Shown here piece by piece: positions 2,898-24,766 of a stretch of DNA of 28,643 bases. The first letter of the stretch is position 1. Every line of letters starts with the position of its first letter. The notes below the pieces were generated by a model. That model had not been told where the DNA came from. It was given only the letters and a program-made list of their open reading frames with translations, and made no database searches. Where the stretch lies: NCBI GenBank assembly GCA_041946805.1, contig JBHGBC010000070.1:1-28643 (forward strand), in the 5' to 3' direction. Made by a program: the position numbers and the translations under genes. Source of the DNA: a bacterium (GTDB lineage: Bacteria; Hinthialibacterota; Hinthialibacteria; Hinthialibacterales; Hinthialibacteraceae).

Positions 2898-5800
2898 ATG
2901 TTTGCATTATGTATTTTTCTATCTCTCTGGAAGCCGGTTCATCCGCTCCGCCTGTTTATCGCCGCGGCCATCTGCCTGATGGCCAACGTGTACACAGCGG
3001 ACGCTCTCGAAAACGCCTGGCTGGGATCGATCAACACCATCAATGACTTCAATCTGCTTTCCTTGGAAGACCACAGCCGGAGCGACTTGCTGCGCGTCAC
3101 CAAGTTCCTCATCCCCGCGCGCCAGGATCCGGCCTTGCTGCCATCCGTCTTCCAAAATGTAAACCTCTACCGCCTCCACCTGGAGTTCATGGTGAATGAG
3201 TTCCCGGAGCGCTTCGGGGGGTTGACCTCCACGGAGTACATGGAGCTGGTCTTTTCCGCAACGCGGACCTATTACGCCGGGGCGGTGTACCAATTCGAGG
3301 ACCGCAACGGCCAGATTCTGTATGGATTCAACATTTACGACTCACCGGATCACGTGGTGAATCCCGCCGAGGTGAAGGCGGTGTACGACATTCTCGCCGG
3401 GGCCATTCGCTTACGGCCGCTGGCGTATTCACCCATCAGCCCACGGGAGATCCAACAAGCCCGGCAATGGACCGATCCGGGCTTCCCCGTCTACCTTCCG
3501 GAGGGAATTGTCGAGCCGGGGTATGAATCCTATTCCCCCGGCACGGCGTACGGCCGCGTGCGGCGCTTCACCCTGGCGGCCTTGGAGACGGCGGTTCAGC
3601 AGGGCCGCCTCAGCTGGCAGGACATCGTGGTGGTGGATGCCGCACCCACGGACATCGAAACCGTGGTCGCGGGAGTGATCACGGGGACCCGGCAGGGCGA
3701 ATTGTCGCACATCAACGTTCGTTGCCTGCGCCGCGGGACGCCCAACGCCTATATTCAGAATCCATTGCCCGTGTTCGCGTCCTACGAAGGGCAACTGATC
3801 AAACTGGAGGTCTCCTCCGATGCGTATCAGATCGTTTACCCCGTGGATGTGGAAGAAGCGGAAGCCTGGTGGAAAGCGCACCGGCCCCAGATTCCCCCGC
3901 TGCCGCTTCCTGACGACACCGATTCCACGCTGCTCTCCTTGCCGGATATGGCGAAATCCCTGAATGGCGATGCACTGGTCCGCCGGTACGGAGGCAAGGC
4001 ATCGCAATTGGGAATTCTGTATTCCGTCATGGCGCCGCGCTACGAGGGGCAGCCGGACATTCCCATCCTGGTGGATGGCTTTGCGATTCCCTTTTATTAC
4101 TACACCGAGTTCATGCGGTCCAACTACATCCCCAATCCCCATGTGCCCAACGCCATGGTGACCTTGGAGGAATACATCCTGGGGCTGCTGGAAGATCCCC
4201 AGTTTCGTAGTGACAGCGAGTTCCGGCGGAGATCCCTGGAGGATTTCATGGAATACATCGAGGACTACGGCATCGTGCCCAACGCGTGGATCGAGGCGAT
4301 CATCGCTAAGATCGAGGAAGTGTTTGGATCGGACTCGGTGAAGGTGAGGTTCCGCTCGTCATCCAATGCCGAGGATGACGTGGCCTTCAACGGCGCGGGA
4401 TTGTATGATTCCACCTCGGTCTGTGTGGCCGATAACCTGGATGGCGATGATTACGGGCCCTCGCTTTGCGATCCCACCGCCAAGAAGGAACGCACGGTCG
4501 AACGTGGATTGAAACGTGTGTGGGCCAGCCTATGGAATCCCCGGGCGTTCGAGGAACGCGAATACTACCAGATCGAACATCGCAACACGCGCATGGGCGT
4601 GCTGGTCACCCTGGCGTATCCCAGCGAAGACAGCAACGGCGTGGCCTTCACGGGCGATCCGGCGACGGGGCGCAAGGATTACCTGGTCATCAACGTGCAG
4701 CAAGGCGATGAAAGCGTGGTGCAGCCGGGGACGGGGATCATTCCCGAAAAGGACATCGTTTATCTCGAATACGGCTGGCCCAGCCGCATCCAGCGCGCAC
4801 GGCCTTCTTCGCTCATGCCCGCGGGCGAATGGATACTCAGCGAGGAGCAGCTGTACGAATTGTCATCGCTGATGGTGGAGATCGACCAAAACATGCCCGT
4901 GAAAACCGGCGAATACACGCGCGATCAAATCGTATTCGATATGGAATTCAAATACGACCAAGGCCAGCTGGTCATCAAGCAGATCCGGCCCACGCTCATG
5001 GCCACGGCGGTGAATCCACCGGTGTTCCCCAGCGAAGTGATCTTGCGCATCCCGGAGAAAACCACGCTGGTGAAGCAATTCGAAGTGGGGCGCACGATCG
5101 AAGAGGAATACCAACTGCTCTCCCGGATTCAATTCAAGGCGGGAAAGTACCTGCTGCCCGTTCAGGCTGGGGAACACGAGTTGGAAATTGTTGAGGAGCT
5201 GGAATTCGGCCCGCGCCGAATCGTGGCGGTTCCCCTGGCGCCTGGGATCGTGCGCGTGGAAGCCTTCACGCGTCCGCAAAACGGCGTGCTGTTGCGGTAT
5301 GAATTCGAGGAAAAGTTCCGGGTTCAGGATAGGCCGGAGAAGACCTTGATCCTCACCATCCAGGGGTTGCAAATCCTCAATGAAAACAAACAGCAGTATA
5401 CAGTCGAGTTGGATACCGTGGTGCTGAGCTACGATCTCTTCACGCAGCTCCAGTGCGAGGAAAATGGGGAGATCAAGAACATTGCGTACGGCCCGGCTAT
5501 CGACCTCTCCGCGCAAGTGTATCTACACGAGGCGGTGCTGGAGGGCAATCAGACGATCAAGTTCTATGAGCTGATCAAGCGCCGCACGCAAGGTATCGGT
5601 ATCGCGTATGCCAACTTTGTCTTCGCCGACATGGAATTAAATGAAGGCTCGTTTCAGCCAAAGGACTACTGGCGGCTGGCCTATTCGGCCATGGGGCACT
5701 GCTGGAACGCGAAGTTCTGGGCCTTGCTCGACCAGCCCGTGGGCGATGTATATGGCGTGGCCTTGCTGACCACCACCATCCAGTGGGGCGCCAGCACCGA

Positions 5801-5930
5801 GGCGGAAGTCTTTCTGCTGGACAAAGACCTCAAGCCTCTGCGGAAGGTGGAGATCATTTCGTATTCGAAGCAAGAGATTGAAGAACTGCCTGATCCCATC
5901 ACCGCCGTGCCGGAGTGGGATTTCTATTAA
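2898..5930 (+). CDS. Signal-peptide protein with phosphohistidine swivel and PPDK_N (PEP/pyruvate-binding, ATP-grasp) domains, and a C-terminal TAVPEWDFY motif
   Basis: Hydrophobic N-terminus (LFIAAAICLMANVYTADA). His motif GELSHINVRCLRRGTPN. ATP-grasp motifs YGGKASQL, DGFAIP, RFRSSSNAED, GAGLYDS, KRVWASLW, DMEFK, KQIRP. Start uncertain (TTG 2844 or ATG 2898). Confidence 0.8.
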   Translation: MFALCIFLSLWKPVHPLRLFIAAAICLMANVYTADALENAWLGSINTINDFNLLSLEDHSRSDLLRVTKFLIPARQDPALLPSVFQNVNLYRLHLEFMVNEFPERFGGLTSTEYMELVFSATRTYYAGAVYQFEDRNGQILYGFNIYDSPDHVVNPAEVKAVYDILAGAIRLRPLAYSPISPREIQQARQWTDPGFPVYLPEGIVEPGYESYSPGTAYGRVRRFTLAALETAVQQGRLSWQDIVVVDAAPTDIETVVAGVITGTRQGELSHINVRCLRRGTPNAYIQNPLPVFASYEGQLIKLEVSSDAYQIVYPVDVEEAEAWWKAHRPQIPPLPLPDDTDSTLLSLPDMAKSLNGDALVRRYGGKASQLGILYSVMAPRYEGQPDIPILVDGFAIPFYYYTEFMRSNYIPNPHVPNAMVTLEEYILGLLEDPQFRSDSEFRRRSLEDFMEYIEDYGIVPNAWIEAIIAKIEEVFGSDSVKVRFRSSSNAEDDVAFNGAGLYDSTSVCVADNLDGDDYGPSLCDPTAKKERTVERGLKRVWASLWNPRAFEEREYYQIEHRNTRMGVLVTLAYPSEDSNGVAFTGDPATGRKDYLVINVQQGDESVVQPGTGIIPEKDIVYLEYGWPSRIQRARPSSLMPAGEWILSEEQLYELSSLMVEIDQNMPVKTGEYTRDQIVFDMEFKYDQGQLVIKQIRPTLMATAVNPPVFPSEVILRIPEKTTLVKQFEVGRTIEEEYQLLSRIQFKAGKYLLPVQAGEHELEIVEELEFGPRRIVAVPLAPGIVRVEAFTRPQNGVLLRYEFEEKFRVQDRPEKTLILTIQGLQILNENKQQYTVELDTVVLSYDLFTQLQCEENGEIKNIAYGPAIDLSAQVYLHEAVLEGNQTIKFYELIKRRTQGIGIAYANFVFADMELNEGSFQPKDYWRLAYSAMGHCWNAKFWALLDQPVGDVYGVALLTTTIQWGASTEAEVFLLDKDLKPLRKVEIISYSKQEIEELPDPITAVPEWDFY

Positions 5931-5936
5931 TAGATA

Positions 5937-6672
5937 CCTGCTACCGTGAACCAAACTTTCCGTGATTGCACTCAATACCTTGATAAATAATGACTTATGC
6001 AATATAATATATACAGCTTACTAGCCACCCCGGAGGTGAACAGCTTTCCGATGCTTTTTGACATCAAACAAGTCGATGAATCCCTCACCAGTCACAGCGG
6101 CCTGGCGTTGATGGGATTGCGTTTGCCGAAAACGAAAATTAAGGACCGGCTCAACGCGGTCCCTCTTCCCGGCCACCCGTACCCGGCGATCAGCCACGGC
6201 GACAACGCCCAGGTCATGATCGGATTGCTGTGTTTGGGCCAGCCGGATTTTGCCGCCATCGAAGCCTTTCGCGATGATCCCTTTTTCCGCGCCGCTTTGC
6301 ACCTGCGGCAGGTACCCTCCGAAGCCACCCTGCGACAGAGCCTGGACAGCGCGCGCGGGGCGTTTGACACGATCCTCAAGGAAGAAGCGGCTGACCTGAT
6401 CGCGCGCCACGCCTTCCGGATCACTCCCTGCCACCAGAATCTCGTGCCCCTCGATATCGACGTGTCCCCCTTCGACAACTCGGGCACCCGCAAGGAAGGC
6501 GTGTCGTGCACTTACAATCAGGTGGATGGCTATGCGCCGATCTTGGCCAACCTGGGCGAGGAAGGGTATTGGATCAACGCGGCATGGCGGGAAGGCAAGG
6601 ATTGGCCAAGATCATTTTTCGTGATGTAAGTTCCGCCGCGATTTTTGGGGAATCGTAGTTCACGGATTCAGG
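5937..6672 (+). mobile_element. Internally deleted IS1380-family insertion sequence (736 bp)
   Basis: Imperfect 17-bp terminal inverted repeats: CCTGCTACCGTGAACCA at 5937-5953 and the reverse complement of 6656-6672, CCTGAATCCGTGAACTA (13/17 match). They enclose a truncated transposase. Confidence 0.8.
6051..6629 (+). pseudogene. Truncated IS1380-family (DDE_Tnp_1_4-type) transposase
   Basis: ESLTSHSGLALMG, VPSEATLRQ and LDIDVSPFDNSGTRKEGVSCTY..DGYAP are typical of the IS1380 N-terminus. Similarity ends at REGK (about 6600), under half of a full transposase. GGAGGTG RBS at 6032. Confidence 0.85.
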
Positions 6673-6872
6673 TATTTGACATGGTGAAATTCTCTCGCGA
6701 TGGGAACATGGTTGCATTCGTAAAAGGGGATACCGTTTATCGCTACGACATCTCCGGCCTCGCCGCCGGGGTGAAGGGATCGGAAAATTTGCGGCAATAA
6801 TGGGAGAAACAAAACGCCTCCCTGTTCGTTCCTCCCTCCAGCGGTGTTTCCCCTTCCGCGGGGATTCAATCC

Positions 6873-7685
6873 TCAAAACAGGCTGACTTCCCGCCAGGCC
6901 GGGGTGGTGTCGTCCCGCCACAGGGCCAGGCCGTCGTGGGCGACGTAGACGGGGCCGTGGTAGTAGCGGCCGATCACGCGCCGGATTTCATACGGGGATT
7001 TGTCCTCCACCTCCGGGTAGAAATGGACCAGCAGCAAGGCTTCGGGCTCGGTTTCCCCCGCCAGGATTCCCGCGTCCTCCAAGGACATGTGCATGAAGAG
7101 CTGCGTCTCGCTGAAGCTGGCTTCGGCCACCAGGAGGTCCAGCCCGCGCAGAGACTCCGCTTGGTCCTCGAAGCGCCCGGTGTCGCCGGTGAAGGCCACC
7201 CGGGCGCCGGCGTCCGTTTGCACGCGGAGGCCGATGGAACCGTCGATGTGCCGGGAAGGCAGCGCCTGCGCCGTCATCCTGCCGAGTGTAATGGTCTGGC
7301 CGGTTTCCAGCGGGTGGGGGACGAAGATTTCGGCGTACATGCCCTCCAGCCCGGTGTGGTCCAACATTTCCTCCACGGCGGCCAGGGTTTCCCGGGTTCC
7401 ATAGAGGTTGACGGCCGGGCCGGGGCTGTAATCCGGCGTGTATTTCCAGGCCACGGCCAGACGGGTCAGGTCGACGATATGGTCGGAGTGGGCATGGGTA
7501 AGCCAGAGGTGGGTGATGGAATCCAAAACCCGGTTAATGGAACCCTCGAGGCAGCAGCGGCGAAACACCGCCCCGTGGCCGAAATCCACCTGCAGCCGGG
7601 TCCGCCCTTCCACGCATTCATAGCTGGACTGCAGGGAGAGGTTCGAGGAAGCGGATCCGCATCCATAAACACGCCACTCCACCAT
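6873..7685 (-). CDS. MBL-fold metallo-hydrolase (RNase Z/BN-like)
   Basis: GCGS N-terminus, VDFG, THAHSDH (HxHxDH), RH, FTGDT, EASF..HMS, LVHFYP. Confidence 0.85.
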   Translation of the reverse strand: MVEWRVYGCGSASSNLSLQSSYECVEGRTRLQVDFGHGAVFRRCCLEGSINRVLDSITHLWLTHAHSDHIVDLTRLAVAWKYTPDYSPGPAVNLYGTRETLAAVEEMLDHTGLEGMYAEIFVPHPLETGQTITLGRMTAQALPSRHIDGSIGLRVQTDAGARVAFTGDTGRFEDQAESLRGLDLLVAEASFSETQLFMHMSLEDAGILAGETEPEALLLVHFYPEVEDKSPYEIRRVIGRYYHGPVYVAHDGLALWRDDTTPAWREVSLF

Positions 7686-8230
7686 GAGTCAGGCTCCTTT
7701 TCCCAGGATTCATGCGTACCAACTGCCGTTGACGAACAATAACCAGCGCGCCGCGAACGAGTCGATTCTCCGAACCGGTTCCCGCCGGATGGCTTCCTGT
7801 TAACCATATATTTACCTGATTCTGAACCAAAAACGAAGCGCAGTCGGGATTCTCACAGGCGATTTCGTGTGGAAATCAATCTTCGGGCAGGCTGATAGGA
7901 GGAAAAACGCCGCGGCGCCTGGATCTCCATTTCCGCGGGGATCCAGGAATTTGGAGTGCAGGCGTTCGGCCCGCATCCAATCTCAATCGGATCGCATAGG
8001 AACAGCCGGGGTGACAATCCCTGGCGCCGTTCTCAAAGGGATCGGCATTTCAGGATTCGAATGATCTTGTGTTCAATCCTGGCGGGATAGTTGTTTTTCT
8101 TTCACAAAACCGTGAGCTGTCGTGTGCGGCTCTTCACCTGAATCCCCTGCGGGGATGAAAGTCTCCTGCATGACCGGGGCTTCGGGGTAAAGATCAGCGC
8201 CGGGGGGAGGGGATGGATTCGCCCGCGGGA

Positions 8231-8239
8231 TGATATACT
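8231..8239 (+). promoter_or_regulatory. Putative extended -10 promoter for the DUF4159 cluster
   Basis: TGaTATACT about 80 nt upstream of the ATG at 8318. Confidence 0.35.
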
Positions 8240-8317
8240 GTGGTTCAGGCGGCGCGCGAGGTGCACAGGAGCGCGTAACCATTCATTCCGTGAAACAGGA
8301 CAAGCGAGTCAGGATTC

Positions 8318-8980
8318 ATGAAGTGGAAATGTTGGGCGGTTGTGGCGCTGTCGTTTCTCGCCCTGGGGGCGGTCAACCGGCCGGACCAGTTGACGATCGC
8401 GCGGCTGAAATACGCGGGCGGCGGGGATTGGTACGGCAATCCGACCTCCTTGCCGAACCTTCTCCAGCAGTTGCGGGAACGGTTGGGCCTGGAAGCCGCG
8501 GCGGAAGAATCGGTGGTCCCCCCCGCGGATCCGGAGTTGTTCTCGTATCCCCTGGTGTATATGAACGGGCATGGGACTGTGCGCTTTTCCGACCAGGACA
8601 TCAACAACCTGCGGGAATTTTTCCGCCGCGGAGGCGTCTTGTGGGCCGACGACAACTTCGGGATGGACGAATCGTTCCGGAGAGAGATCGCGCGGGTGCT
8701 GCCGGATCATCCCCTGGAGGAGATACCCTTCGACCACCCGGTGTTCTCGGCCTACTATGTCTTCGAGAACGGGCTGCCCAAGATCCATGAGCATTACGGC
8801 GGCCCGCCGAAATTGTACGGAATTTACCTGGACGGGCGGCTCGCGGTTTTCTACACGTTCAACACGGATATCGGGGATGGATTGGAGAGCGAGGGGGTGC
8901 ATCCCCAGGATTCGGCGGAAATCCGCGAGCAGGCCATGAAAATGGCCATCAATATCGTGCTCTTTGTCCTGTCCAGTTGA
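8318..8980 (+). CDS. DUF4159-domain exported protein
   Basis: Signal peptide. IARLKYAGGGDWY.NP, YPLVYMNGHG, GGVLWADDN, PKIHEH, TDIGDG are characteristic of DUF4159. Confidence 0.85.
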   Translation: MKWKCWAVVALSFLALGAVNRPDQLTIARLKYAGGGDWYGNPTSLPNLLQQLRERLGLEAAAEESVVPPADPELFSYPLVYMNGHGTVRFSDQDINNLREFFRRGGVLWADDNFGMDESFRREIARVLPDHPLEEIPFDHPVFSAYYVFENGLPKIHEHYGGPPKLYGIYLDGRLAVFYTFNTDIGDGLESEGVHPQDSAEIREQAMKMAINIVLFVLSS

Positions 8981-9062
8981 CCATTCCGCTTCCCTTGGAC
9001 CTGGAATCCGGCATAATCAAAGGAAACACCCGATCATCCGATGGGCCGCCGTGGATTAAAGC

Positions 9063-10724
9063 ATGGATCTGCGCAGGGGATACGCTTCCGAGGAGGAACG
9101 GGAACGCCTTTTGTTCCGGTTGATTCTCGTCAACAAATGGTTCCTGATTCCCACTTCGGTCGTTTATGAATGGATCATTTCCACCGCCCCCTTCCGCCTG
9201 GCGGTGTACGATTTCATTTTACCCACCATTCTCTACACCAGCAGTTCGCTGATTTTCGTGATCCTGCTATGGTTTTTGCACCGCAACTACGGCGAGGACG
9301 TGAACGCGCCGCGGTATTTGCGGTCCGCCATGGCGCTGGGCGCGCTGTCGTTTTTGGCGGACGCCGCGTATATCTTTTTTTTGACCTTCAACTCGAGCGC
9401 GGGCAATGTGTTATGGCTCTTGTTCCTACCCCCGATCTCGCAAATTCTCCTGGTTCCCCGGTGGCAGCAATGGAAAACGTTGGTCGTGGATGGGCCGGCC
9501 GCCTTTGTGGTTTTCATCGTCCTGTTCGGGTTGTTGCTTTCCTACGAATACCCCGCCGGGACGCCCCGGTTCCCCCCCGCGGATCTCTTGCTCAGCCTGG
9601 CGGGTTTGCTTTTCATGTGGGTGAACGTGCGTCTGGTGCGGGTGTGGATCGACGCGCTGTTGACGGATGTCCAAGGCCTGGGGAATCTCGATTCGCTGTG
9701 GACGGAGGTGATTCACCGTTTTCCGACGGAGTTTTTCCTGGTGAACGACCAGGGGAAACTGATCATCGCCTCGGAGGCGGCCCGCAAGCTCTTATCCCTG
9801 CCCGAAAACGGCAGTTACGATTGGCCGGAGCCGACGCAGTCGATCCGCAACGCCTTGTTGCTGCGCTTTCATGCCGAAACCAAGTTGGATGACAACATCA
9901 CCGTTCCGGACGACGACTATCCGCATCCGGTCAAGATTTACCCGGCCTTCTTTTTGATGGGCAACGAGCGGTTTTGCATCGCCCTGGCGCAGGAAGAGAA
10001 TCCCGAGATCCCCAAGCAGGCGGCCGTGTTGCGTTCGGACCGGTTGACCATCGCCGGGCAGATCGCCGCCGGACTGGCGCACGAGTTGGGCAATCCCCTG
10101 GGGATCATCCATTCGTGTGCGTCGTATCTGAAACAGAAATCGCCCGAGGACCCCAACCGGGAAGAATTCGAGTTGATCGAGAGAGAGTCGAAGCGGTGCC
10201 AAAATCTGATCGACCGCCTGTTGTCGCTGGCCTCGCCCAAACGCGACACGCCTGGCGTGCATGACCTGCGGGACATCGTGCGCAATTCCCACGCTCTCGT
10301 GAAGTACCAAGCCGGGGAGCGGGAAATCGACCTGTCCCTGCCCAGCGAACCGGTATGGATCCACGCCAATGAAGGCCAATTGTCCGCCGTGTTCGTGAAC
10401 TTGTATCTGAACGCGCTCCAGGGGATGGAAACCGTGGGGCCGGAAGCCAAGTTGCGCATCCACATGCGCACGCGCGGAGAGCAGGCGATCGTGGACGTCA
10501 CGGACGAGGGCGTGGGGATTCCCAAGGACGAGCTGGAAAAGATTTTCGATCCCTTTTTCACCCGCAAGGCACAGGGGACCGGTCTGGGATTATACATCGT
10601 GCATCAAATCATCCACTCGCTGGGCGGCCGGATCGATGTGGCGAGCACCGTCGGTTCCGGAACCACGTTCAGCATTTACCTGCCCCTGTGCCAGGATATC
10701 CCCGACGCGGAAAAATCAGAATGA
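9063..10724 (+). CDS. Membrane sensor histidine kinase (HisKA + HATPase_c)
   Basis: About 5-6 N-terminal TM helices. H-box LAHELGNPL, N-box NLYLNA, G1 DEGVGI, F-box IFDPFFT, G2 GTGLGL. Confidence 0.93.
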   Translation: MDLRRGYASEEERERLLFRLILVNKWFLIPTSVVYEWIISTAPFRLAVYDFILPTILYTSSSLIFVILLWFLHRNYGEDVNAPRYLRSAMALGALSFLADAAYIFFLTFNSSAGNVLWLLFLPPISQILLVPRWQQWKTLVVDGPAAFVVFIVLFGLLLSYEYPAGTPRFPPADLLLSLAGLLFMWVNVRLVRVWIDALLTDVQGLGNLDSLWTEVIHRFPTEFFLVNDQGKLIIASEAARKLLSLPENGSYDWPEPTQSIRNALLLRFHAETKLDDNITVPDDDYPHPVKIYPAFFLMGNERFCIALAQEENPEIPKQAAVLRSDRLTIAGQIAAGLAHELGNPLGIIHSCASYLKQKSPEDPNREEFELIERESKRCQNLIDRLLSLASPKRDTPGVHDLRDIVRNSHALVKYQAGEREIDLSLPSEPVWIHANEGQLSAVFVNLYLNALQGMETVGPEAKLRIHMRTRGEQAIVDVTDEGVGIPKDELEKIFDPFFTRKAQGTGLGLYIVHQIIHSLGGRIDVASTVGSGTTFSIYLPLCQDIPDAEKSE

Positions 10725-10745
10725 ACAGGATGGGAATTTGAATCC

Positions 10746-14837: not shown

Positions 14838-14840
14838 TCC

Positions 14841-15464: not shown

Positions 15465-16341
15465 GCAGCTGGATAGCCTTCATCCCTTCCTGCAAGGCCA
15501 TCATTTCATCGTCTTCCAGGTTGCGTTGGGGGAGGCGCATGGAGCCCGCGTCCACGCCCAGGAGCCACAAGCTGGCCTTGAGGTGGGCGATCAGATTGGC
15601 GTGGACGATCAAGTCCACGTAGCGGTTGATTTGCTGCTGGCATTGCATGGCGGTTTCGTGGTCGCCCGCCTGGACGGCGGCGAGGAGCGCCAGGAAAACC
15701 TTGGGCTGCACGTTGGCCGTGGAGGAGACGATGGCTTTGCCCCCCGCCTGGAGGGAGCGGCAGACCTGCGTGTCGTTTCCGCAAATGATTTGAAACTGGT
15801 CGGATTTATAGGGCAGCCAGCGTTGCAGCGCGCCCTCCTCGCCGCTTTCCTTGATCCCCCGGATGTTGGAAAACCGTTTGAGCAGCCGCTCCAGGGTGAC
15901 GGGTTTCAAGTCGTTGCCGGTGTTCTGAGGCAGGTTGTACAAATAAAGGGGGTTGTCCCCCACGGCTTCGGCCACCCGGGCGATGTAGGTGAATTGGGCC
16001 TCTTCGTCGCAACGGAAAAACCAAGGCTGCAGCAGGCTGATGGCGTCCACGTTCATTTGCACGGCGGCCTTGGCGGTGGCCAGGGTTCCCGGCAGATCCC
16101 CGCATCCCACTTGCATGATCACCCGCGCGCGGCCGTGCAGGCAGCGCAGGGTTTCTTCCAACACGACGATTTTTTCCTGGGAAGAGAGGCAGGGGCCTTC
16201 GCCGGTGGTTCCGCAGATGAATACGCCTTGGACTCCGCTTCGCAGCAGCCATTCACAGAGCGGTTTGATTTTGGCGGTGTCGATCTTCATGCCGTCCGGC
16301 GTGAAGGGAGTGGGCAAAGCCGGAAATATGCCACGTAACAT
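15457..16341 (-). CDS. DapA/NAL-family class I aldolase (probably not a true DHDPS)
   Basis: ALPTPF, GTTGEG, LYNLP, Schiff-base lysine in GIKES. 8-bp convergent overlap with the KynB-like gene. Confidence 0.88.
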   Translation of the reverse strand: MLRGIFPALPTPFTPDGMKIDTAKIKPLCEWLLRSGVQGVFICGTTGEGPCLSSQEKIVVLEETLRCLHGRARVIMQVGCGDLPGTLATAKAAVQMNVDAISLLQPWFFRCDEEAQFTYIARVAEAVGDNPLYLYNLPQNTGNDLKPVTLERLLKRFSNIRGIKESGEEGALQRWLPYKSDQFQIICGNDTQVCRSLQAGGKAIVSSTANVQPKVFLALLAAVQAGDHETAMQCQQQINRYVDLIVHANLIAHLKASLWLLGVDAGSMRLPQRNLEDDEMMALQEGMKAIQLLT

Positions 16342-16540
16342 GGGTCCGGGTGTCCTTTCTCAACGTCAAATGGGTTTGTGCGAGTCTACTCCATCCGTGG
16401 GAAAACAGAAGTGAACCGGTGATTTTGGCTAGGGGGGCGGGAGGAACGAAAGGGAAGCTGCGCCGGCCGTCCCGCAACGGGGAACGTGAAGAATAGGGAA
16501 GGATGAGGACGGTGAAGGCAGGATGGCTTGGCCGATCCGG

Positions 16541-16588
16541 AACACAAAAACAACAAGGCGCGGACAGGCAAGCTTCCCGCGCCTTGTT
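16541..16588 (-). terminator. Intrinsic terminator downstream of the 16634-18457 gene
   Basis: Perfect 12-bp stem AACAAGGCGCGG (16552-16563) / CCGCGCCTTGTT (16577-16588), followed on the minus strand by GTTTTTGTGTT. Confidence 0.7.
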
Positions 16589-16633
16589 TGGTCATTTGTC
16601 CGTTCAGGAATCCAATCCCCGCCGACCGGGCCG

Positions 16634-18457
16634 TTAATACAGGTCCCAGAGTTGGACCGCCGTGGGGTACGGTACGATGTCGGCCAGCATGTCCACGCCG
16701 GCGTTTTTGCCCACGGGGCGGATCACCGCGTAGCGGACCCGGCTGATATACACCGCGCAATTGTCGGAGAACCCCAGCCGCACCGCTCCCGGGGAGACAT
16801 TGACGCCCGTGAAGTTGACGTCATCGATCACCCAGGCCACCGTACGCCATTCTCCCGTGCCTTCCAAGGTCAGGCGGTTTTCGGCGGGATAGAACTTGAT
16901 GGTCACAATCCCGAAGACGTTGGTTTGATACACTTCCGGCCCGAAGCGTTCGCCCGCCAACGCCGGATCATCGTAATAATCATAGGCCATCTTGATCTTG
17001 GCGTTGGGTTGGCTGGTCGGCCCGAACACTTCGTTCAGGATGACGAAGTTCATGTACCGGTCGAAGTTGGTGTCCGTCCCCTCGCCCAGCGCGGGCCGGA
17101 CCGCCCGGCGCTTGTCATTATCGGGTCCGATGCCTTCCTCGATGATGTACTCCTGGTCGCCGCCGCTGCCGACCATGTCGAGATTGTCCGTGACTCCCAG
17201 GTTGAGGTCCAGTTCGGCGTAGATCCCATACGGATCGGGATCGAAGGGATAGACGTTGGGAATGGGGTCGACCCCCTCATAGATGCCGGAGGTGCGGATC
17301 ACGCCGAGGCGTAGGCGGCTGATGTACACCGGCCCGGTGAAGACGAACTGGGTGGCCGCCTGGGTGGGAACATTGACGCCCTTGAGTTTCACGTCCGTCA
17401 CATACCACAACGCCTCTTTCCACTTCCCGCTGCCTTCCAACACGGTCCGGCTGGCATCCGGATAGAACGCCAGTTGGTCACCCACGGAGTAGTATGCTTC
17501 CGGCCCGAAGATGGCGCCGGCCAGGGCGGGATCGTCGTAATACTCGGCGACGATCTTGTACCGGGCGCTAGGCTGGCTGGTGGGGCCGAAGAACTCATTG
17601 AGAATTTCCCAATTCACGTAAATGTCCCGCGTCCCATCCGTGCCATTGTCCAATGCCGGGCGGATCGCCTTGCGCTGGTCGCCGGCGGGTCCGATGCCGG
17701 ACGATTCCACGATTTCCTGGTCGCCGCTGGTCACCCGGTACACATCCAGGCCGTTTTTGACGCCCTTGTTGATGTCCCATTCGGCCATGATCCCGAAGTT
17801 ATCGGGGTTGAATTCCACCACCGTGGAGACATTGATGTCTTCCGGTTCCCCGAACACGCCCGCGGGGGCGAAAGCCACTGCCCGGATGATCAGGCCGTTG
17901 GTGTTTTGCAGCCGGATGGTGCCGCCGTTCACGCCGCCGGCCGTGGCGCCGGGATCGACCTGGTTTCCAGCCCAGCCGTCGGAGTTGTCCACGCGGAAAA
18001 GCCGCCATTGATACTGGTCGGTCACCGATTCGAACGAATAGTCGGGCGTGCCATGCAGGTTTCCGAGCGTGCCGAGCAGAAAGTTGAAATTGCTCCGCTT
18101 GGATTCGGAATTGGCGAAATACAAGACCAGCACGTCGATGGAGGTGATATCCGGCCAGAAATCGAAGAATTGGTCCGCCACATTGAAATATTGGGACTCC
18201 GATTTTTTGGCGTCGAGACCGCCCACGACCACATCCGTGGTTACCTGATCGCCTCCGGTCAGGACGGAAAGCGAATCGATGAACTGGGTTCCCTGGCCGC
18301 TGGGAATCGCGTCAAACAGGAAACCGTCCGCGCTCCAGAAGTGCACCTCCGCGGTGAAGTCGGTGAGGGGCGGCCACTTGGTGGTGTCCGGCGCTTGCGC
18401 GTTGGCCGCCATGGCCGTCACCACAAGCAATCCTAGCAAAAGTCTGGTGCGTTTCAT
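16634..18457 (-). CDS. Secreted hypothetical protein with tandem ~190-aa repeats and a C-terminal TAVQLWDLY motif
   Basis: Sec signal MKRTRLLLGLLVVTAMAANA-Q and AAAGGA RBS. Duplicated blocks GIGP..D.R.A.RPAL, ILNE.FGPTSQP.A, YYDDPALAG..FGPE, YISR.R. Confidence 0.85.
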   Translation of the reverse strand: MKRTRLLLGLLVVTAMAANAQAPDTTKWPPLTDFTAEVHFWSADGFLFDAIPSGQGTQFIDSLSVLTGGDQVTTDVVVGGLDAKKSESQYFNVADQFFDFWPDITSIDVLVLYFANSESKRSNFNFLLGTLGNLHGTPDYSFESVTDQYQWRLFRVDNSDGWAGNQVDPGATAGGVNGGTIRLQNTNGLIIRAVAFAPAGVFGEPEDINVSTVVEFNPDNFGIMAEWDINKGVKNGLDVYRVTSGDQEIVESSGIGPAGDQRKAIRPALDNGTDGTRDIYVNWEILNEFFGPTSQPSARYKIVAEYYDDPALAGAIFGPEAYYSVGDQLAFYPDASRTVLEGSGKWKEALWYVTDVKLKGVNVPTQAATQFVFTGPVYISRLRLGVIRTSGIYEGVDPIPNVYPFDPDPYGIYAELDLNLGVTDNLDMVGSGGDQEYIIEEGIGPDNDKRRAVRPALGEGTDTNFDRYMNFVILNEVFGPTSQPNAKIKMAYDYYDDPALAGERFGPEVYQTNVFGIVTIKFYPAENRLTLEGTGEWRTVAWVIDDVNFTGVNVSPGAVRLGFSDNCAVYISRVRYAVIRPVGKNAGVDMLADIVPYPTAVQLWDLY

Positions 18458-18716
18458 GCAATTTCATCCTTTCGTGGAGAGTTTGCCAAGATGCATCGAT
18501 TGAGTGCTTATTTGATAATTCTCTCAAAAAAAATTACTTACTGTCAAGCTATGTCCGGTTCATGGCATAATATCAGTCCGGCGATGAGGGGATCGTTGAA
18601 GAAACCGGATATTTCCATCATGATTTCACCGGCCGGGATGATCCGGATGAGGGAAGTAGAGGCCTCCTTCTCCACGAGACGCGGGAAGGGGAACGCGATT
18701 CAGAAAGGGACGAGAC

Positions 18717-20039
18717 GTGAATGCGACATTGAATCGGAGAGGTTTCATTCGGCGCGGTTCCGTGGTGGCCTTGAGCCTGCCGGCGTTCCAGCGGACAGCG
18801 AAAGCGGGAGAGCCGGCGGCGGATCCCGCCCGGCCGGTCCGGATCGGGGTGATCGGCGTGGGCGGGCGCGGGTATTCGTTGCTGAGCCTCCTTGCAGGCA
18901 TCGAAAACGTGCGCATTCCCGCCCTGTGCGACATCCGGCCGGAGCGGGTGGAAATCGGCCAAAAGTTGGTGACCGAAGCCGGTCAACCCCAGCCGGAGGG
19001 GTATGTCAAGGATGATTACGCCTACGAAAAGCTGTGCGCGCGCGAGGACCTGGACGGGGTGATCATCGCCACGCCCTGGGACTGGCACGCGCGCATGGCC
19101 GTGGCGGCCATGAAAGCGGGGAAATACGCCGGGGTGGAAGTGCCGGCGGCGCAAACGCTCGAGGAATGCTGGGACCTGGTGGACACCACGGAGAAGACCG
19201 GCGTCCCGTGCATGATGCTCGAGAACTGGAGTTTCCGGCGGGACAACCTGGCCGTGTTGAACATGATCCGCGCGGGCCTGCTGGGCGAAACGGTCCATGC
19301 CCAATGCGCCTACGCCCACGATTGCGTGACGTATTTCTGCGACGCGGAAGGCCGGCCCCGCTGGCAAGGCGAATATTTGTTCACCCGGAATCGCGATCCC
19401 TATCCCACCCATGGCCTGGGGCCGGTGCTGAGCTGGATGGACATCCACTGCGGAGACCGTTTCGACCGCCTGACCACCGTGGCCACCGCCCCGTTCGGTC
19501 TGCAGCATTATCTCCAAAAGCAATTCGGGCCGGATCATCCCGCCGCCAAGCGCCCGGTCCTGCAGGGCGATGTGGTGACCACGATCGTGAAGACCAAGAA
19601 GGGCAAGACCATCACGATTATCAACGACATGGTGCTGCCCCGCCCGTACGACAACCGGTGGCTGGTCCAGGGGACCGGCGGCATCTACAGCCAGGAACAT
19701 GACGCGGTGTATCTCGAGGGCCGCAGTCCGAAATCGCACGAGTGGGAGCCGTTCGCGCCGTATCAGAAACAATACGACCATGCCTTGTGGCGGAATGCCC
19801 CGGCGGATGTCGAACAACGCGGCCACGGCGGACCGGATTATTTCGAGTTGGCGGAATTCGTGCGGGCGGTCCGGGCGAAAGGCCCGTTGCCGTTGGACAT
19901 CTACGATTCGGTGACCATGAGCAGCGTGGTGGCGCTGTCGGAGCAATCCCTCGCCCAGGGCGGCGCGCCGGTGGAATGCCCCGACTTCACGCGGGGAAAA
20001 TGGGAGAGCCGGAAGCCGGTTTTCGCGGTGGAGGCGTGA
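18717..20039 (+). CDS. Tat-exported Gfo/Idh/MocA oxidoreductase, GH109 (alpha-N-acetylgalactosaminidase-like)
   Basis: Twin-arginine LNRRGFI, Rossmann IGVGGRG, ATPWDWH, VEVPAA, MMLEN, YPTHGLGP, GHGG.D, PDFTRGKW. Confidence 0.88.
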   Translation: MNATLNRRGFIRRGSVVALSLPAFQRTAKAGEPAADPARPVRIGVIGVGGRGYSLLSLLAGIENVRIPALCDIRPERVEIGQKLVTEAGQPQPEGYVKDDYAYEKLCAREDLDGVIIATPWDWHARMAVAAMKAGKYAGVEVPAAQTLEECWDLVDTTEKTGVPCMMLENWSFRRDNLAVLNMIRAGLLGETVHAQCAYAHDCVTYFCDAEGRPRWQGEYLFTRNRDPYPTHGLGPVLSWMDIHCGDRFDRLTTVATAPFGLQHYLQKQFGPDHPAAKRPVLQGDVVTTIVKTKKGKTITIINDMVLPRPYDNRWLVQGTGGIYSQEHDAVYLEGRSPKSHEWEPFAPYQKQYDHALWRNAPADVEQRGHGGPDYFELAEFVRAVRAKGPLPLDIYDSVTMSSVVALSEQSLAQGGAPVECPDFTRGKWESRKPVFAVEA

Positions 20040-20078
20040 GGGGGTAATGATTCCATTCCTCACGACAGAAAGATGTCA

Positions 20079-20306
20079 TCAACGCGAATCGCGGATGATT
20101 TCCGCTAATTTTCTAAGGGCATCATTGACGGCGGCGGATGTGGGAAATACACGCGCCACATCGGGATCGAGCACGACCACATTGGTTCCATGCGCGTAGC
20201 GTTTGGCCGTTACTCCCCTTTCGGCCTTGGAAAAGTCGTATTCGGGGCGCATCGTATCTTCATCCGCATGGGCGGGAGACGTTTTATTGACCGGTTCCTT
20301 CTTCAT
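20079..20306 (-). CDS. Antitoxin of a BrnT-type toxin-antitoxin pair (BrnA/CopG-like)
   Basis: 75 aa. MRPEYDFS..RG...LDPDVA..F....VNDALR. The ATG overlaps the restored toxin C-terminus. Confidence 0.75.
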   Translation of the reverse strand: MKKEPVNKTSPAHADEDTMRPEYDFSKAERGVTAKRYAHGTNVVVLDPDVARVFPTSAAVNDALRKLAEIIRDSR

Positions 20307-20570
20307 ATTGTCTTCGTTCCCGTGGAGTCGCTTCCCGCGCACTGATCAAGCGGGTTTTGTTTCTCTCTCCACATACGACACAACCAGACATCGTTTTCGT
20401 TGAGATACTCCAAGAAGCAAATAACGATCTTCGGTGATTGAATGATCCGGATCCGGCATATTCATGGAAAATGGATCGCCGAAAACCGTCGAGACCTCTT
20501 CAAATGACACTCCGTGTTTGCGCAAATTCATAACCGCTTTTTGGGAATCCCATTCAAAATAATACATCAC
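20284..20570 (-). pseudogene. brnT: BrnT-family toxin with a 1-nt frameshift
   Basis: FEWD..KA..NLRKHGVSFEE, DPDHS..EDRY. The frame stops at 20346, but the -1 frame continues KTRLISAREATPRERRQYEEGTGQ* to 20284. Confidence 0.85.
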
Positions 20571-20665
20571 AAATCATCCCCTGCCAAGCATTTGTTTTAT
20601 TAACTCCTTTGTAATCAAGGATTTCTATACTACACTCCCCACGAAACCGCCCGATTGTCCATCTT

Positions 20666-22972
20666 CTAAATCAGCCACTCCAACAACTCCAACGCGCTCT
20701 TTTTGCCTTGCGCGCCGATTTCCAGCGGGGGGCCGGCGCAAGAGGGGCATCCCTGCTTGCATTGGCAGCCGTGGAGCAGGTCGCCGGCGGCCTTGAAGAG
20801 CTGCTGGTCGATGTCGTATATGCGGCGGGCGATGCCGATGCCGCCGGGATAGACATCGTACAGGTAAATGGTCGGCAGGCCGGAGAAGGGGGCGCGCACC
20901 ATGGGGGCGGCGCTGATATCGCGGGGATCGCACAGCACGAACACGGGAACCACGTTGCCCAGCGCCGTGGCCAGGGCGCGCAGGCCGCCGCCGAGGTCGA
21001 CCTGCCGGCGGGCCAGTTCTTCCATCAATTCGGCGGGAAATTCAATCCAATAGGATTCGGTCTGCTTGTCCAGCTGGGGCAGGTGGATGTTGCCGAAGCC
21101 CACGTTTTCATGGGTTTCGAAGCGGATCTTCTTGTATTTCGGGACGATGGTGCTGACCGCCACTTCGCCGAAGTACCGGTGAATGTGGGCGGGCGGGTCC
21201 TTGCGCCCGGTCTGGATCGGTTCGCTAAGGTCCGTGGTCAGCACCTTGATGTCGCTCTCTTCCACGGCGTCGGTGTAGTAATCGACGTCCACCTCGCGGG
21301 CGTAGGCGGTGCGGCCGTTCCAATCCAGTTTGTCGATGACGTAGGGCTGGCTCTGGTGCAGGTAGATGGCCTGCTCGTGGATCAGCATGGGCGCGCTGTG
21401 GAGGTCCACTTCGCCCAGCACGCGGTTGCCGTCGCTGGTGTTGATGATCACGAAGTTCTCCGAACTGGCCGACCGCAGCGAGATCTCCTCGGCGGGATAG
21501 GCGGCGCTGGACCAGAACCACTTGTCCCCCGCGTGGCGCAACACGCGCTCTTCTTCCAGGTAACGGAGGATGCCCTCGACCTCCACGCGGCCGAAGGGTT
21601 CGCCTTCGTTGAACGGCAACTCGAACGCCCCGCATTTCAGATGGCTGGCGAGGATGGCGAGGTTGTCGGGATTGACCAGGCCGCTTTCGGGGGTCGTGCC
21701 GAAGAAATACCGGGGGTGTTGGATGATGAACTGGTCGAGGGGGGCCGAACTGGCCACCAGGAAGACCACCGAAGATTCCTGGGTGCGTCCCGCGCGGCCG
21801 CCCTGCTGCCAAGTGGAGGCGATGGTTCCCGGGTATCCCGCGAGCACCGCCGCCTTGAGCCGGCCGATGTCGATGCCCAGCTCCAGGGCGTTGGTGCTGA
21901 CCACGCCCAGGTAGCGCCCGGAACGCGTGCCTTCCTCGATGTCGCGGCGTTCGTTGGGGAGATAGCCGCCCCGGTAGCCGCGGATGCGGTCGGGATCTTT
22001 CTTGTGGCGCTCCATGGCGCGCTTGAGGTAGGTGGTGAGGATCTCCACGCGCAGGCGGCTGCGGCCGAAGACGATGGTCTGGACGCCCTGCAGCAGGAAC
22101 TTGGTGGCGATGCGGCTGGCCTCGTTGATCACCGACTTGCGGATGCCCAGTTCCTGGTTGATGACCGGGGGATTGTAGAAGATGAAATGCTTTTCGCCCC
22201 GGGGCGCGCCGTTGTTGTCGATCAGGCGGAAGGGGACGCCGAAGAGCTGCTCGGAGAGTTCCTTGGGATTGGCGATAGTCGCCGAGCAACAGATGAAGCG
22301 GGGATTCGCGCCGTAGAAGCGGCCGATCCGCCGCAGCCGGCGCATCAGGTTGGCGAGATGGCTGCCGAACACGCCGCGGTAGTGATGCACTTCATCCACC
22401 ACCACGAATTGCAGATTTTCGAACAGCCGGATCCAGAGAGTGTGGTGCGGCAGGATGCCGGTGTGCAGCATGTCCGGATTGGTGACGACAATATGGCCGG
22501 AGTTGCGGATGGCGCGGCGGGCGGTTTGGGGGGTGTCGCCGTCGAAGGTGTGAATCTTGATATCACGCCCTAGTTGCGAGGCGATATCCCGAGCCTCCAG
22601 CACCTGATCCTGCGACAGCGCCTTGGTCGGAAAGAGGTACAACGCCCGGGCTTCGGGATTGATGAGGGTGAGATGATGCAGCACCGGCAGGTTGTAGCAC
22701 ATGGTCTTGCCGGAGGCGGTGGGGGTGACCACGATCACGTTTTCACCCCGCAGGACACGATCGACGGCCGCGGCCTGGTGGCTATAAAGGTTCTCGATAC
22801 CCCGTTGTTTCAACACGTCCCGCAGTCCGGGGGAAAAGCCGTCCGGCCAGGGGCCGTATTCGGCCGGCTGGGCGGGAATGGTATGCCAGAAGGTGATATT
22901 CTCCCGGATGTGGGGATCGGAGCGGAGGGATTCCAATACGGTATCGACGTCGGCCATCTCAACCCAGGTCAT
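20666..22972 (-). CDS. DEAD/DEAH-box helicase with DUF1998 Zn domain (MrfA/YprA/SftH/Hrq1 family)
   Basis: LYSHQ, TPTASGKT, PTKAL.QDQ, DEVH, SAT, LELGIDIG, QQGGRAGR, and C-terminal CDPRD...YD..PGG.G...CQCKQGCPSC. Confidence 0.93.
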   Translation of the reverse strand: MTWVEMADVDTVLESLRSDPHIRENITFWHTIPAQPAEYGPWPDGFSPGLRDVLKQRGIENLYSHQAAAVDRVLRGENVIVVTPTASGKTMCYNLPVLHHLTLINPEARALYLFPTKALSQDQVLEARDIASQLGRDIKIHTFDGDTPQTARRAIRNSGHIVVTNPDMLHTGILPHHTLWIRLFENLQFVVVDEVHHYRGVFGSHLANLMRRLRRIGRFYGANPRFICCSATIANPKELSEQLFGVPFRLIDNNGAPRGEKHFIFYNPPVINQELGIRKSVINEASRIATKFLLQGVQTIVFGRSRLRVEILTTYLKRAMERHKKDPDRIRGYRGGYLPNERRDIEEGTRSGRYLGVVSTNALELGIDIGRLKAAVLAGYPGTIASTWQQGGRAGRTQESSVVFLVASSAPLDQFIIQHPRYFFGTTPESGLVNPDNLAILASHLKCGAFELPFNEGEPFGRVEVEGILRYLEEERVLRHAGDKWFWSSAAYPAEEISLRSASSENFVIINTSDGNRVLGEVDLHSAPMLIHEQAIYLHQSQPYVIDKLDWNGRTAYAREVDVDYYTDAVEESDIKVLTTDLSEPIQTGRKDPPAHIHRYFGEVAVSTIVPKYKKIRFETHENVGFGNIHLPQLDKQTESYWIEFPAELMEELARRQVDLGGGLRALATALGNVVPVFVLCDPRDISAAPMVRAPFSGLPTIYLYDVYPGGIGIARRIYDIDQQLFKAAGDLLHGCQCKQGCPSCAGPPLEIGAQGKKSALELLEWLI

Positions 22973-23002
22973 AATTCAAGATGTTGATTTTGTTTCCTAA
23001 CA

Positions 23003-23014
23003 GAACAAATGTTC
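23003..23014. promoter_or_regulatory. Putative LexA/SOS box GAAC-N4-GTTC
   Basis: GAACAAATGTTC palindrome 5 nt downstream of the helicase -10 element, over the expected transcription start. Confidence 0.7.
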
Positions 23015-23019
23015 AGTAA

Positions 23020-23048
23020 AGTATAGGGATGAGGAATGAGAAAGTCAA
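23020..23048 (-). promoter_or_regulatory. Sigma70-type promoter of the helicase gene
   Basis: Minus strand TTGACT (23048-23043), 17-nt spacer, TATACT (23025-23020). Confidence 0.8.
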
Positions 23049-23155
23049 GAAAAGTCACAGAAGATGTTGCCATTTTCCTTGGCGGGATTGAAATTTACGA
23101 ATTTCAAATATAACCAATTATGGATTCGGTTAATCATTCAATCTGTTGTTTCATA

Positions 23156-23182
23156 TTGAAATCAGGCAGGAAATGATATAAT
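23156..23182 (+). promoter_or_regulatory. Putative promoter of the LamG gene
   Basis: Perfect extended -10 TGaTATAAT (23174-23182). TTGAAA at 23156-23161 with a short 15-nt spacer. Confidence 0.5.
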
Positions 23183-23353
23183 GGTCTGCTTTTTTAGAAT
23201 TCCATGTTGAAAGGAGGCCGACTGATCGCAGAACCAGACGATGACTCAATTCGGAAATGGGGAAATTGTTATCTGTCACAGGTCCATTTGGGTGTAGCCC
23301 GGAATGGGGAAACAGCCGTTTCCTGAAACCCGATTAAAGAAGGAGAAGAGCAG

Positions 23354-24766
23354 ATGAAACAATATGCGGTGATTTTCGGATTGCTGGGTATCTTGGTGGC
23401 TATGCAGGTCCCCGGCTACGCGCAGCCATTGGCGTCGTTTGATTTCAACGAGGGGAGTGGAAACACGACCACGTCCAATCCAGGCGGGCTGGTGGGAACC
23501 TTGGGATTGACGGATCCTCCTGATCTTACCGGAGCGATCGTAGTGAATGACGACAATCCGTCCGGGGCGGCCAATGACAAGTCGATTCAGTTCACGGGCG
23601 TGGACGGCCTGAGCGCGGCGGGCGAGCAGGCGGCGTTCGCGGACTTGATCCAGAATCCGCTGACGGTGGAAGCGTGGGTGAAGGTGGACCAGTTCGCCCA
23701 GGAATGGGAAGATGTCTTTCGTTTGGGTAACAGCCTGAAACTGGGTTTCCACAATGGAAACATTGTGTGGACGACATTGGGCGTCCTCGACTGGCAGAGT
23801 GAAGTGCCGGTGCCCGCGGGCGAATGGCACCATATCGCGGTGGCGTGGACACCCGGGGACATCGCCATTTTTTATCTGGACGGAGAGGAAGTGAATTCCA
23901 TTACAGACGCCGGTCCGGCCCGCGCTCTGCAGAACAGTTTGCTTTCCATCGGGTCATCGCATACCGCGTCGAGCATCCTGATCGGATCAATCGACCGCCT
24001 GCGGATCCACAAGGCAATTCTAGAGCCGGCGCAGCTCGATTCCGTCGCCGCCACGCCCAAGGCGGCGGACGCCAACACGGTGATCGCCTACGACTTCAAC
24101 GAGGGCTTGCCCGCGCAGAACAAGGGTTCTTTCACCATGCAGCCCACGGCGGGAATCGTGGAGGCCCAATACGCTAACGCCATGCCGGAGTTCCGGACGG
24201 ATACGCCCACGGGCCAAGCGGGTGATTACTCCCTGTATTTCAATGGGATCGGTTCGCGGGTGGAAGTCCCGGATCCCGATTTCAAGATCGCGTTGGACGT
24301 GACCGGGAATTTCACCCTGGAAGCGTATATCAAATTCGACGACCTGCCGGGCGCGCGTTCCATGATCCTGGCCTATGGCGTTCCCGGAGCGGGCGGGTAT
24401 TCGTTCTCGGTGACCAGTGACCGGAACCTGTTCGCCACGACCTATGGCATTTTGGATTTCGATATGGCGGTCGAAGCGGTCATCTCCGACACCAACTGGC
24501 ATCACGCCGCAGTCGTGCTCGACGGTGACAACGGGCAGATGCGGTTCTACGTGGACGGCGAATTGAAGACCACCGTGGACTACACGGGCGGGATCAATAC
24601 AACGACAGGGAATTACCTGTTCATCGGTATGGAAGGGACGGCCACCGCGCCGGGGAATCTCTACAAGGGATTCATTGACCGGATCCGGATTTACGACACC
24701 GTACGGACACCCGACCAGTTCGATATCGTCACGCCGGTGAGCGTGGACAGTTGGATGATGTTCTAA
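23354..24766 (+). CDS. Secreted protein with two LamG-like (Laminin_G_3 / concanavalin-like) domains and a C-terminal VSVDSWMMF motif
   Basis: Signal peptide ending GYA-Q and AAGGAG RBS. Two copies of FNEG...TxEA[WY]xK...WHHxA...FYxDGE...GxIDRxRI. Confidence 0.9.
   Translation: MKQYAVIFGLLGILVAMQVPGYAQPLASFDFNEGSGNTTTSNPGGLVGTLGLTDPPDLTGAIVVNDDNPSGAANDKSIQFTGVDGLSAAGEQAAFADLIQNPLTVEAWVKVDQFAQEWEDVFRLGNSLKLGFHNGNIVWTTLGVLDWQSEVPVPAGEWHHIAVAWTPGDIAIFYLDGEEVNSITDAGPARALQNSLLSIGSSHTASSILIGSIDRLRIHKAILEPAQLDSVAATPKAADANTVIAYDFNEGLPAQNKGSFTMQPTAGIVEAQYANAMPEFRTDTPTGQAGDYSLYFNGIGSRVEVPDPDFKIALDVTGNFTLEAYIKFDDLPGARSMILAYGVPGAGGYSFSVTSDRNLFATTYGILDFDMAVEAVISDTNWHHAAVVLDGDNGQMRFYVDGELKTTVDYTGGINTTTGNYLFIGMEGTATAPGNLYKGFIDRIRIYDTVRTPDQFDIVTPVSVDSWMMF

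Follow-up and report, generated by a model that had tools for sequence, protein, structure and literature searches.

A nine-residue C-terminal tail on some 150 unrelated exported proteins as a candidate sorting signal of three related candidate phyla

Background

Several bacterial sorting signals place a common ending on many unrelated exported proteins. In the tripartite signals LPXTG, PEP-CTERM, IPTL-CTERM, GlyGly-CTERM and MYXO-CTERM, a short C-terminal motif is combined with a transmembrane (TM) helix and a basic tail. In the type IX secretion system (T9SS) of Bacteroidota, one C-terminal domain (CTD; PF18962 / TIGR04183) with an immunoglobulin-like fold and a length of 70-80 residues serves many Sec-exported cargoes, among them LamG, CotH and CBM-type extracellular proteins. 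Type IV filaments provide two further cases: the C-terminal strand of PilC/PilY1/MshQ (C-beta) is taken in trans by a strand-less PilK (PMC13533445), and in a type IVb pilus a flexible peptide of the secreted protein CofJ binds the pilus component CofB (PMC6048534). Type II secretion system (T2SS) cargo is generally held to have no common linear signal (PMC7949064).

Here we describe a tail of nine residues at the C-terminus of three proteins encoded within 28,643 nucleotides of DNA (the window) from a bacterium of the candidate phylum Hinthialibacterota (contig JBHGBC010000070.1 of assembly GCA_041946805.1). An earlier note, made from the letters of the window, had suggested that the tail serves export or surface attachment via a receptor; our sequence comparisons support this suggestion, be it export or surface docking. 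The tail matches no catalogued signal family: it behaves like a many-cargo C-terminal sorting signal without the defining parts of each known one.

The tail in the window and in its genome

The window is one contig (C284) of a 6.7-Mb genome (G000) that is 96.8% complete. All three tails were found again exactly where the earlier note had placed them, at the ends of a dikinase-like protein, a repeat protein and a LamG protein (Table 1). These proteins, here called carriers, are indeed non-homologous: no mutual BLASTP similarity is left at E<=1 once the last 15 residues are cut off. The signal peptides ascribed to all three are present in the translations and by our own heuristic, and the motif is missing from the rest of the window: the 15 other called genes score -4 or lower on the motif profile described below, compared to 16.9-21.7 for the carriers. 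The untagged genes include three exported proteins, namely an S41 protease, a 220-residue protein at 8318 and a metallopeptidase at 26125. The latter (26125-28209, minus strand) is a zinc metallopeptidase that contains a Pro/Thr linker and, at its C-terminus, a repeated region.

In this genome, a dicodon model called 4449 genes and left 30038 open reading frames (ORFs) uncalled. The expression put forward for a proteome scan, [STAV]Vx{2}Wx{2}[YF]$, is above chance (17 of the called genes, against 1 of the uncalled ORFs) but too narrow: a looser expression finds 88 called genes and 12 uncalled ORFs, and an iterated 14-position profile reaches a score of 9 or more in 117 of the 4449 genes, with 0.34 expected from internal windows. 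The score range below this cut-off is almost empty. The profile was trained on this same genome and is in that respect circular; an independent DNA pattern (see below) serves as a separate check. Chance origin of the motif is excluded. When six long uncalled ORFs and forms with one to three extra residues are added, the total is 158 carriers; some false positives may be among the extended forms with low scores, but only a few. Rarity of the motif elsewhere in the genome, named in the earlier note as an argument against a signal, is thus not what is observed. A BLAST comparison of the carriers with their tails removed gives 85 groups, of which 70 have a single member. The carriers are also scattered: the first 123 are spread over 85 contigs.

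The consensus is [TAVS]-x-[VI]-x-[DE]-W-x-L-[YF], sometimes with one residue more. Across the 158 carriers, the most frequent residues are T (83), V (26), A (24) and S (21) at position -9, V (120) and I (28) at -7, D (71) and E (27) at -5, W (145) and F (11) at -4, L (96), V (19) and I (14) at -2, and Y (82), F (26), H (16) and Q (15) at -1. No residue follows the tail in 123 proteins, one in 31, two in 2 and three in 2. Proline is accepted at -10, -8, -6 and -3 (in 14 of 158 tails it directly follows the Trp) and never occurs at -9, -7, -5, -4, -2 and -1. This proline pattern, together with the tolerance of up to three extra residues, fits a groove-binding peptide rather than a carboxylate clamp. 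A short linker of Pro, Gly and Ala connects the last folded domain to the tail; in the LamG protein of the window, it starts about 6 residues past the end of the last LamG domain.

The carrier proteins

As the earlier note had anticipated, the tail is enriched on proteins with signal peptides: 115 of 143 callable carriers have one by our heuristic, in comparison to 1118 of 3522 other genes (P=1e-31). Most of the 28 negative carriers look by eye like signal peptides or wrong starts. Internal TM segments are found in 5 of the 143 carriers and in 735 of the 3522 other genes, and a motif for twin-arginine translocation (Tat) in 1 of the 143 carriers and in 119 of 883 other exported proteins. The other exported proteins are markedly less acidic (median net value 0.025) than the carriers (0.067). 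Most exported proteins are untagged, and the tail marks a subset.

A Pfam scan covered 111 of the 158 carriers. There are nine CBM9 proteins, eight CotH, seven LamG and three multiheme cytochromes; further families are FG-GAP, WD40/PQQ/NHL propellers, beta-helices, hydrolases, a rhodanese and the PPDK_N protein of the window, while 61 carriers have no Pfam match. No solute-binding or beta-barrel family is among the 111. Judged from its domains, this set has the profile of an extracellular cargo, and the tagged multiheme cytochromes suggest extracellular electron transfer. Cytochromes of the c-type mature in the periplasm; export would therefore concern the folded protein.

Distribution across lineages

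Of the 158 carriers of this genome, the DNA pattern V-x-[DE]-W-x-L-[YF]-stop recovers no more than 29. In 35 genomes of Hinthialibacterota it has 576 matches, compared to 25 for the reversed control; every genome has a match and 32 have three or more. In 75 genomes of a phylum titled Sumerlaeota there are 350 matches against 32 for the control, with three or more in 38 genomes. One block of 18 Sumerlaeota genomes (G039-G056) is tag-negative, with 3 matches against 10; a relaxed pattern (W-x-hydrophobic-[YF]-stop) was not above control in any of five tag-negative genomes (13 versus 51), and no variant tag was found there. A third small phylum, represented by five genomes, has 14 matches against 2, and 7 of 10 inspected loci end long frames.

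A scan of all species genomes returned at least 119 stretches. At least 72 of these end long frames (at least 21 titled Sumerlaeota, at least 9 Omnitrophota/Hinthialibacteria, at least 1 UBP4, at least 38 'bacterium' and at least 3 others); at least 47 end short frames, which corresponds to chance. Two carriers have their best named homologues in 'Ca. Omnitrophica bacterium' and Ca. Hinthialibacter antarcticus. The link to Sumerlaeota and OLB16, which the earlier note had suggested, was right: tagged loci carry OLB16, 'Omnitrophota' and Sumerlaeota titles. The tail is widespread in three related candidate phyla and may extend to further lineages.

Exchange of the tail for other C-terminal domains

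From 120 listed homologues of the dikinase-like protein, 50 near-full-length ones were picked: 18 of these finish with the tag, 21 with an EF-hand/dockerin-like domain and 11 in another way. Where a homologue of the dockerin-like type has a name, it is from Planctomycetes; Dockerin_1 itself was confirmed on P0028. An ending of the TAVPEWDFY type is kept in the 20 closest listed homologues (P0002-P0021), in one case with 5 extra residues; two shorter homologues that lack the last ~290 residues (P0021, P0041) still keep it. The LamG protein gives a similar picture: of 44 homologues, 21 end in the tag, 18 in a domain of about 65 residues and 5 are partial or other. This domain (P0143-P0158, P0161, P0162) stands in place of the tag and ends with F/Y-Y-R-L-x-K-P; one of the homologues with this domain is named Verrucomicrobiae and one 'Clostridia'. 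No Pfam or NCBIfam model matched the domain on the copies scanned, and it is a candidate sorting domain of Verrucomicrobiota-type bacteria.

The replacement of the tail by other lineage-specific C-terminal domains at the same junction indicates a lineage-dependent label and not a part of the fold. The tail is almost certainly a functional label of some kind.

Comparison with known sorting signals

The tail shares with the tripartite signals that a short C-terminal motif recurs on many unrelated exported proteins. Unlike these, it has no TM helix or basic tail: the protein ends 0-3 residues past W-x-L-Y. The comparison with NCBIfam models that had been proposed found no relevant model on 43 tails at E<=10, a search in which the HMMER filters drop weak matches. 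TIGR04174 had two matches (E 3-4), neither of them at the tail of a carrier. The S/D-E-W-x-L part presumably recalls IPTL-CTERM; identity with this signal is not supported, as its hidden Markov model does not pick up the tails. Sortase was found in 0 of 5 genomes and exosortase in 1 of 5, which is not the genome of the window; rhombosortase and myxosortase were not searched for.

With the T9SS, the tail has in common the many cargoes for one signal, the Sec-exported extracellular protein families and the presence of PorU-like C25 proteins; the difference is one between 9 residues and a whole domain. No Por_Secre_tail was present on the 111 scanned carriers, and the genome search for the CTD was negative in 5 of 5 genomes, its control being silent as well. 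PorV was absent from 5 of 5 genomes with a positive control, SprA gave only a sub-threshold match over 53 positions with a silent control, and there is no CTD of the YPNP type in the genome of the window. Nor do the 111 scanned carriers include an outer-membrane barrel family, which the beta-signal of the beta-barrel assembly machinery (BAM) would call for, and barrel-like proteins that end in F are, by eye, without the tag.

C-beta of PilC/PilY1/MshQ is closer in size: like the tail, it consists of about 6-12 extreme C-terminal residues of a Sec-exported folded protein with no TM helix, and it is read by type IV filament components. It belongs to one or few tip adhesins per system, in contrast to the ~158 unrelated cargoes here (PMC13533445); the tail is moreover acidic and accepts Pro, there is no support for its pairing with PilK, and a separate gene for the donor is present (see below). 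CofJ resembles the carriers as proposed here, in that the flexible end of a secreted protein docks on a component of a pilus, but the peptide is N-terminal and the case is one of a single cargo in a type IVb system (PMC6048534). The dockerin-like tails of Planctomycetota and the FYRL-ending tails occupy the same junction on homologous cargo, but are folded domains of 60-70 residues with unrelated sequence. Our literature search, with subscription papers and supplements outside its reach, found no description of the motif.

A type IV filament machine as possible reader

The reading that we favour, at slightly less than an even chance, is that a type IV filament (T2SS-like) machine reads the tail as a signal for export or display, with passage through a secretin. 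In its broadest form, a universal nine-residue signal would load up to ~150 unrelated folded proteins onto the T2SS/type IV filament machine in all three candidate phyla; this is a tentative proposal that we regard as rather less than probable. The carrier would cross the inner membrane by Sec and fold in the periplasm, where multiheme cytochromes must gain their hemes. Its tail would then be bound by a conserved component of the type IV filament machine (GspC, the N-domain or TPR region of the secretin, or a pseudopilin), with T-x-V-x-D as a short extended strand and W-x-L-Y as a hydrophobic turn after it, and the protein would be pushed through the secretin, out to the cell surface or into the medium. 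In this way, ~150 glycan-binding, hydrolytic and redox proteins would be served by a single signal and a single machine, as the CTD does for the T9SS in Bacteroidota. Peptide docking on such filaments has its nearest precedents in cases with a single cargo (PMC13533445; PMC6048534).

The genome of the window has eight secretins, among them a GspD-like one, two of the Tad type, a tandem short pair and one with TPR, as well as several GspE-K gene sets and complete T2SS gene sets. The PilM-PilN fusion and the TPR-secretin (Table 1) recur in both Hinthialibacterota and Sumerlaeota. There are also 108 paralogous GspG-like pilins (AIAVPNF ... SNGLxSxGDI) with a hypervariable middle; counts of this pilin pattern reach 193 per genome in the phylum, and the near-zero counts in one family (f6) are a miss of the pattern, as a variant pilin adjoins a tagged gene there. 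A structure model of the pilin resembles GspG/EpsG (predicted local distance difference test, pLDDT, of 70; best template modelling scores to pseudopilins 0.6-0.67 on the target, with E-values that are not significant). Pilins and carriers tend to be neighbours: 26 of 108 pilins adjoin a carrier, compared to 213 of 4193 other genes. Seen from the carriers, a pilin is adjacent to 27 of the 158, with a mean of 11.3 and a maximum of 24 in 20000 shuffles among 940 exported genes. Tandem short secretins are also found in three other genomes (G016, G031, G037); they were dropped as reader, given that the tag-positive genome G036 has three secretins, none of which is this pair, and that several tag-rich genomes have only 2-3 secretins.

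A number of observations weigh against a filament machine as reader. The proposed phylogenetic profiling for a co-occurring gene was unsuccessful: no candidate separates tag-positive from tag-negative Sumerlaeota, and every candidate reader is also present in tag-negative relatives or otherwise explained. Secretins are present in 80 of 80 genomes tested, AIAVPNF pilins in 76 of 80 and the TPR-secretin in 70 of 75 Sumerlaeota, in each case with the tag-negative block included, and ~332 kb around the pilins of tag-negative G043 contain no shared tail. As many as 131 of the 158 carriers have no adjacent pilin, and the linkage may thus only reflect shared glycan-use loci. The T2SS accepts Tat cargo too, and the Tat proteins of this genome are without the tag. 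Finally, the signal peptides were called by our own heuristic and not by SignalP.

Alternative explanations

Instead of being an export signal, the tail could dock non-covalently on an S-layer, lipoprotein or cohesin-like adaptor, as dockerin does, with the carriers leaving the periplasm by signals of their own. We consider such docking unlikely, but it is the best of the alternatives: the cargo is glycan-binding, a cohesin-domain lipoprotein heads the TPR-secretin locus and a dockerin-like EF-hand domain replaces the tail in 21 of the 50 near-full-length PPDK-like homologues. The dockerin-like tails could, however, be export signals themselves, no scaffold with repeated binding domains was found, and docking requires a separate export signal for 85 unrelated groups. 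As a separate observation, the cohesin of this locus could read dockerin-like tails that are seen on a few proteins of the genome.

A second alternative is PorU-like transpeptidation, in which a conserved C25 (gingipain-family) protease would cleave the carrier at its tail or upstream of it and attach it to a glycan or lipid of the cell surface, as a T9SS-style sortase without a T9SS translocon. C25 proteins are present in 78 of 80 genomes, an 1826-residue copy in this genome shows, by eye, both catalytic motifs (His and Cys), and several copies lie beside genes that seem, by eye, O-antigen-ligase-like or to encode glycosyltransferases. The T-x-V-x-[DE] half of the tail resembles, as we presume, the linker before T9SS CTDs. 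Nevertheless, such linkage is quite unlikely: C25 proteins are also encoded in 17 of the 18 tag-negative genomes, the 1826-residue protein reaches only 213 bits on the PorU model NF033707 (cut-off 420), PorV is missing and linkage to carrier genes was not observed. None of the C25 proteins examined is itself a carrier.

The tail could also supply the missing last beta-strand of a minor pilin of the PilK/GspK family by strand addition of the PilY1 type, which would make the carriers interchangeable filament tip proteins. A giant PilK (2157 residues here) is indeed present in 26 of 26 genomes of the phylum tested, and it stops right after the penultimate strand in 18 of 18 complete copies, the hallmark of a trans-strand PilK (PMC13533445); orthologous cis strands read like I-I-D-W-R-F-I. 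This explanation is decidedly improbable, though. The gene after pilK encodes, in three families, an exported protein that ends with N-L-Y-F-R-E-R or similar, which is a better donor and not a carrier; about 26 GspK-like proteins of Sumerlaeota, many from tagged genomes, all keep the strand in cis by eye; and none of 19 cis strands reaches the scores of carriers (best 4.8 on the tag profile). A Pro right after the Trp in 14 of 158 tails is ill-suited to a strand buried on both edges, and no PilC/PilY1 Pfam match was found among the 111 scanned carriers. When two native fragments of the strand-less PilK core were modelled in complex with the tail from the window, the scores were 0.01 and 0.00 against a mark of 0.32; the controls did not fold, and the result carries no weight in either direction.

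The protein encoded after PilK in the three families has ~430 residues, is exported and has no Pfam family; it is a probable non-propeller PilY1 analogue. The PilK cassette also has a weak match to Verru_Chthon cassette protein A.

Purely periplasmic handling, with the tail as a chaperone, BAM-like or tail-specific protease motif and no role in export, is very improbable: the terminal aromatic residue is as in BAM beta-signals and an S41 protease is encoded in the window, but the presence of the latter is not shown to be beyond chance, the barrel-like proteins ending in F are untagged, extra residues are tolerated and the tag is swapped with whole domains in other phyla.

Other features

The features are listed in Table 1. 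Directly after the dikinase-like gene, an ORF of 210 residues (5997-6629, plus strand) is presumably a transposase fragment, judged by eye. For the repeat-protein gene, RNA-library contigs of ~90% identity cover most of the gene in 3 of 4 runs and a part in the fourth; the runs were picked by this gene itself and the contigs are from relatives, hence they are no proof of expression. Neither the repeat protein nor the tail had useful neighbours in the Atlas, a scan of viral contigs with the helicase of the window found nothing, and an AlphaFold model of the LamG carrier from its single sequence (pLDDT 37) gave no information.

Table 1. Positions of the tails, their carriers in the window and further loci of the same genome (numbers without prefix are window positions; C, contig; L positions in brackets where given)
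Feature	Position	Strand	Remarks
C-terminal tag TAVPEWDFY + stop, dikinase-like protein	5901..5930	+	motif-profile score 21.7
Carrier 1, exported PPDK_N-domain protein, 1010 aa	2898..5930	+	Pfam PF01326
C-terminal tag TAVQLWDLY + stop, repeat protein	16634..16663	-	motif-profile score 16.9
Carrier 2, exported repeat protein, 607 aa	16634..18457	-	no Pfam or NCBIfam family; internal duplication visible in translation
C-terminal tag VSVDSWMMF + stop, LamG protein	24737..24766	+	motif-profile score 19.8
Carrier 3, exported double-LamG protein, 470 aa	23354..24766	+	Pfam PF13385 x2
Cohesin lipoprotein, PilM-PilN fusion, TPR protein, TPR-secretin	C35:8465-17879 (L161:466-9877)		
Two tandem short secretins and TPR lipoprotein	C223:91484-98364 (L159:8688-14365)		no motor genes nearby
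Example of the GspG-like pilins	L173:2264-2803		
Three tagged multiheme cytochromes	C242:229-8361 and C5:1636-2895		7-10 CXXCH; two with MtrC/MtrF-like domains
Two PorU-like C25 proteases	C251:31078-36558 and C259:5788-9633		by eye, both with intact catalytic motifs; no PorV and no above-threshold SprA in this genome
H-I-J-K minor pilin cassette with 2157-aa PilK	C79:14130-25933 (L163:3131-14934)		

Conclusions

Nine residues define a probable surface or extracellular proteome, about 3.5% of the genes of this genome, in phyla that are uncultured. The tail adds a class with neither a TM helix nor a domain to the prokaryotic C-terminal sorting signals, and its swaps suggest that the tails in Planctomycetota and in Verrucomicrobiota-type homologues are probably labels of a similar nature. 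Should a type IV filament machine be its reader, this would bear on the open question of how the T2SS recognises its cargo, which is generally held to have no common linear signal (PMC7949064). The tail would then be a portable secretion tag of the T2SS type that could be grafted onto any protein, and cargo recognition would become directly testable.

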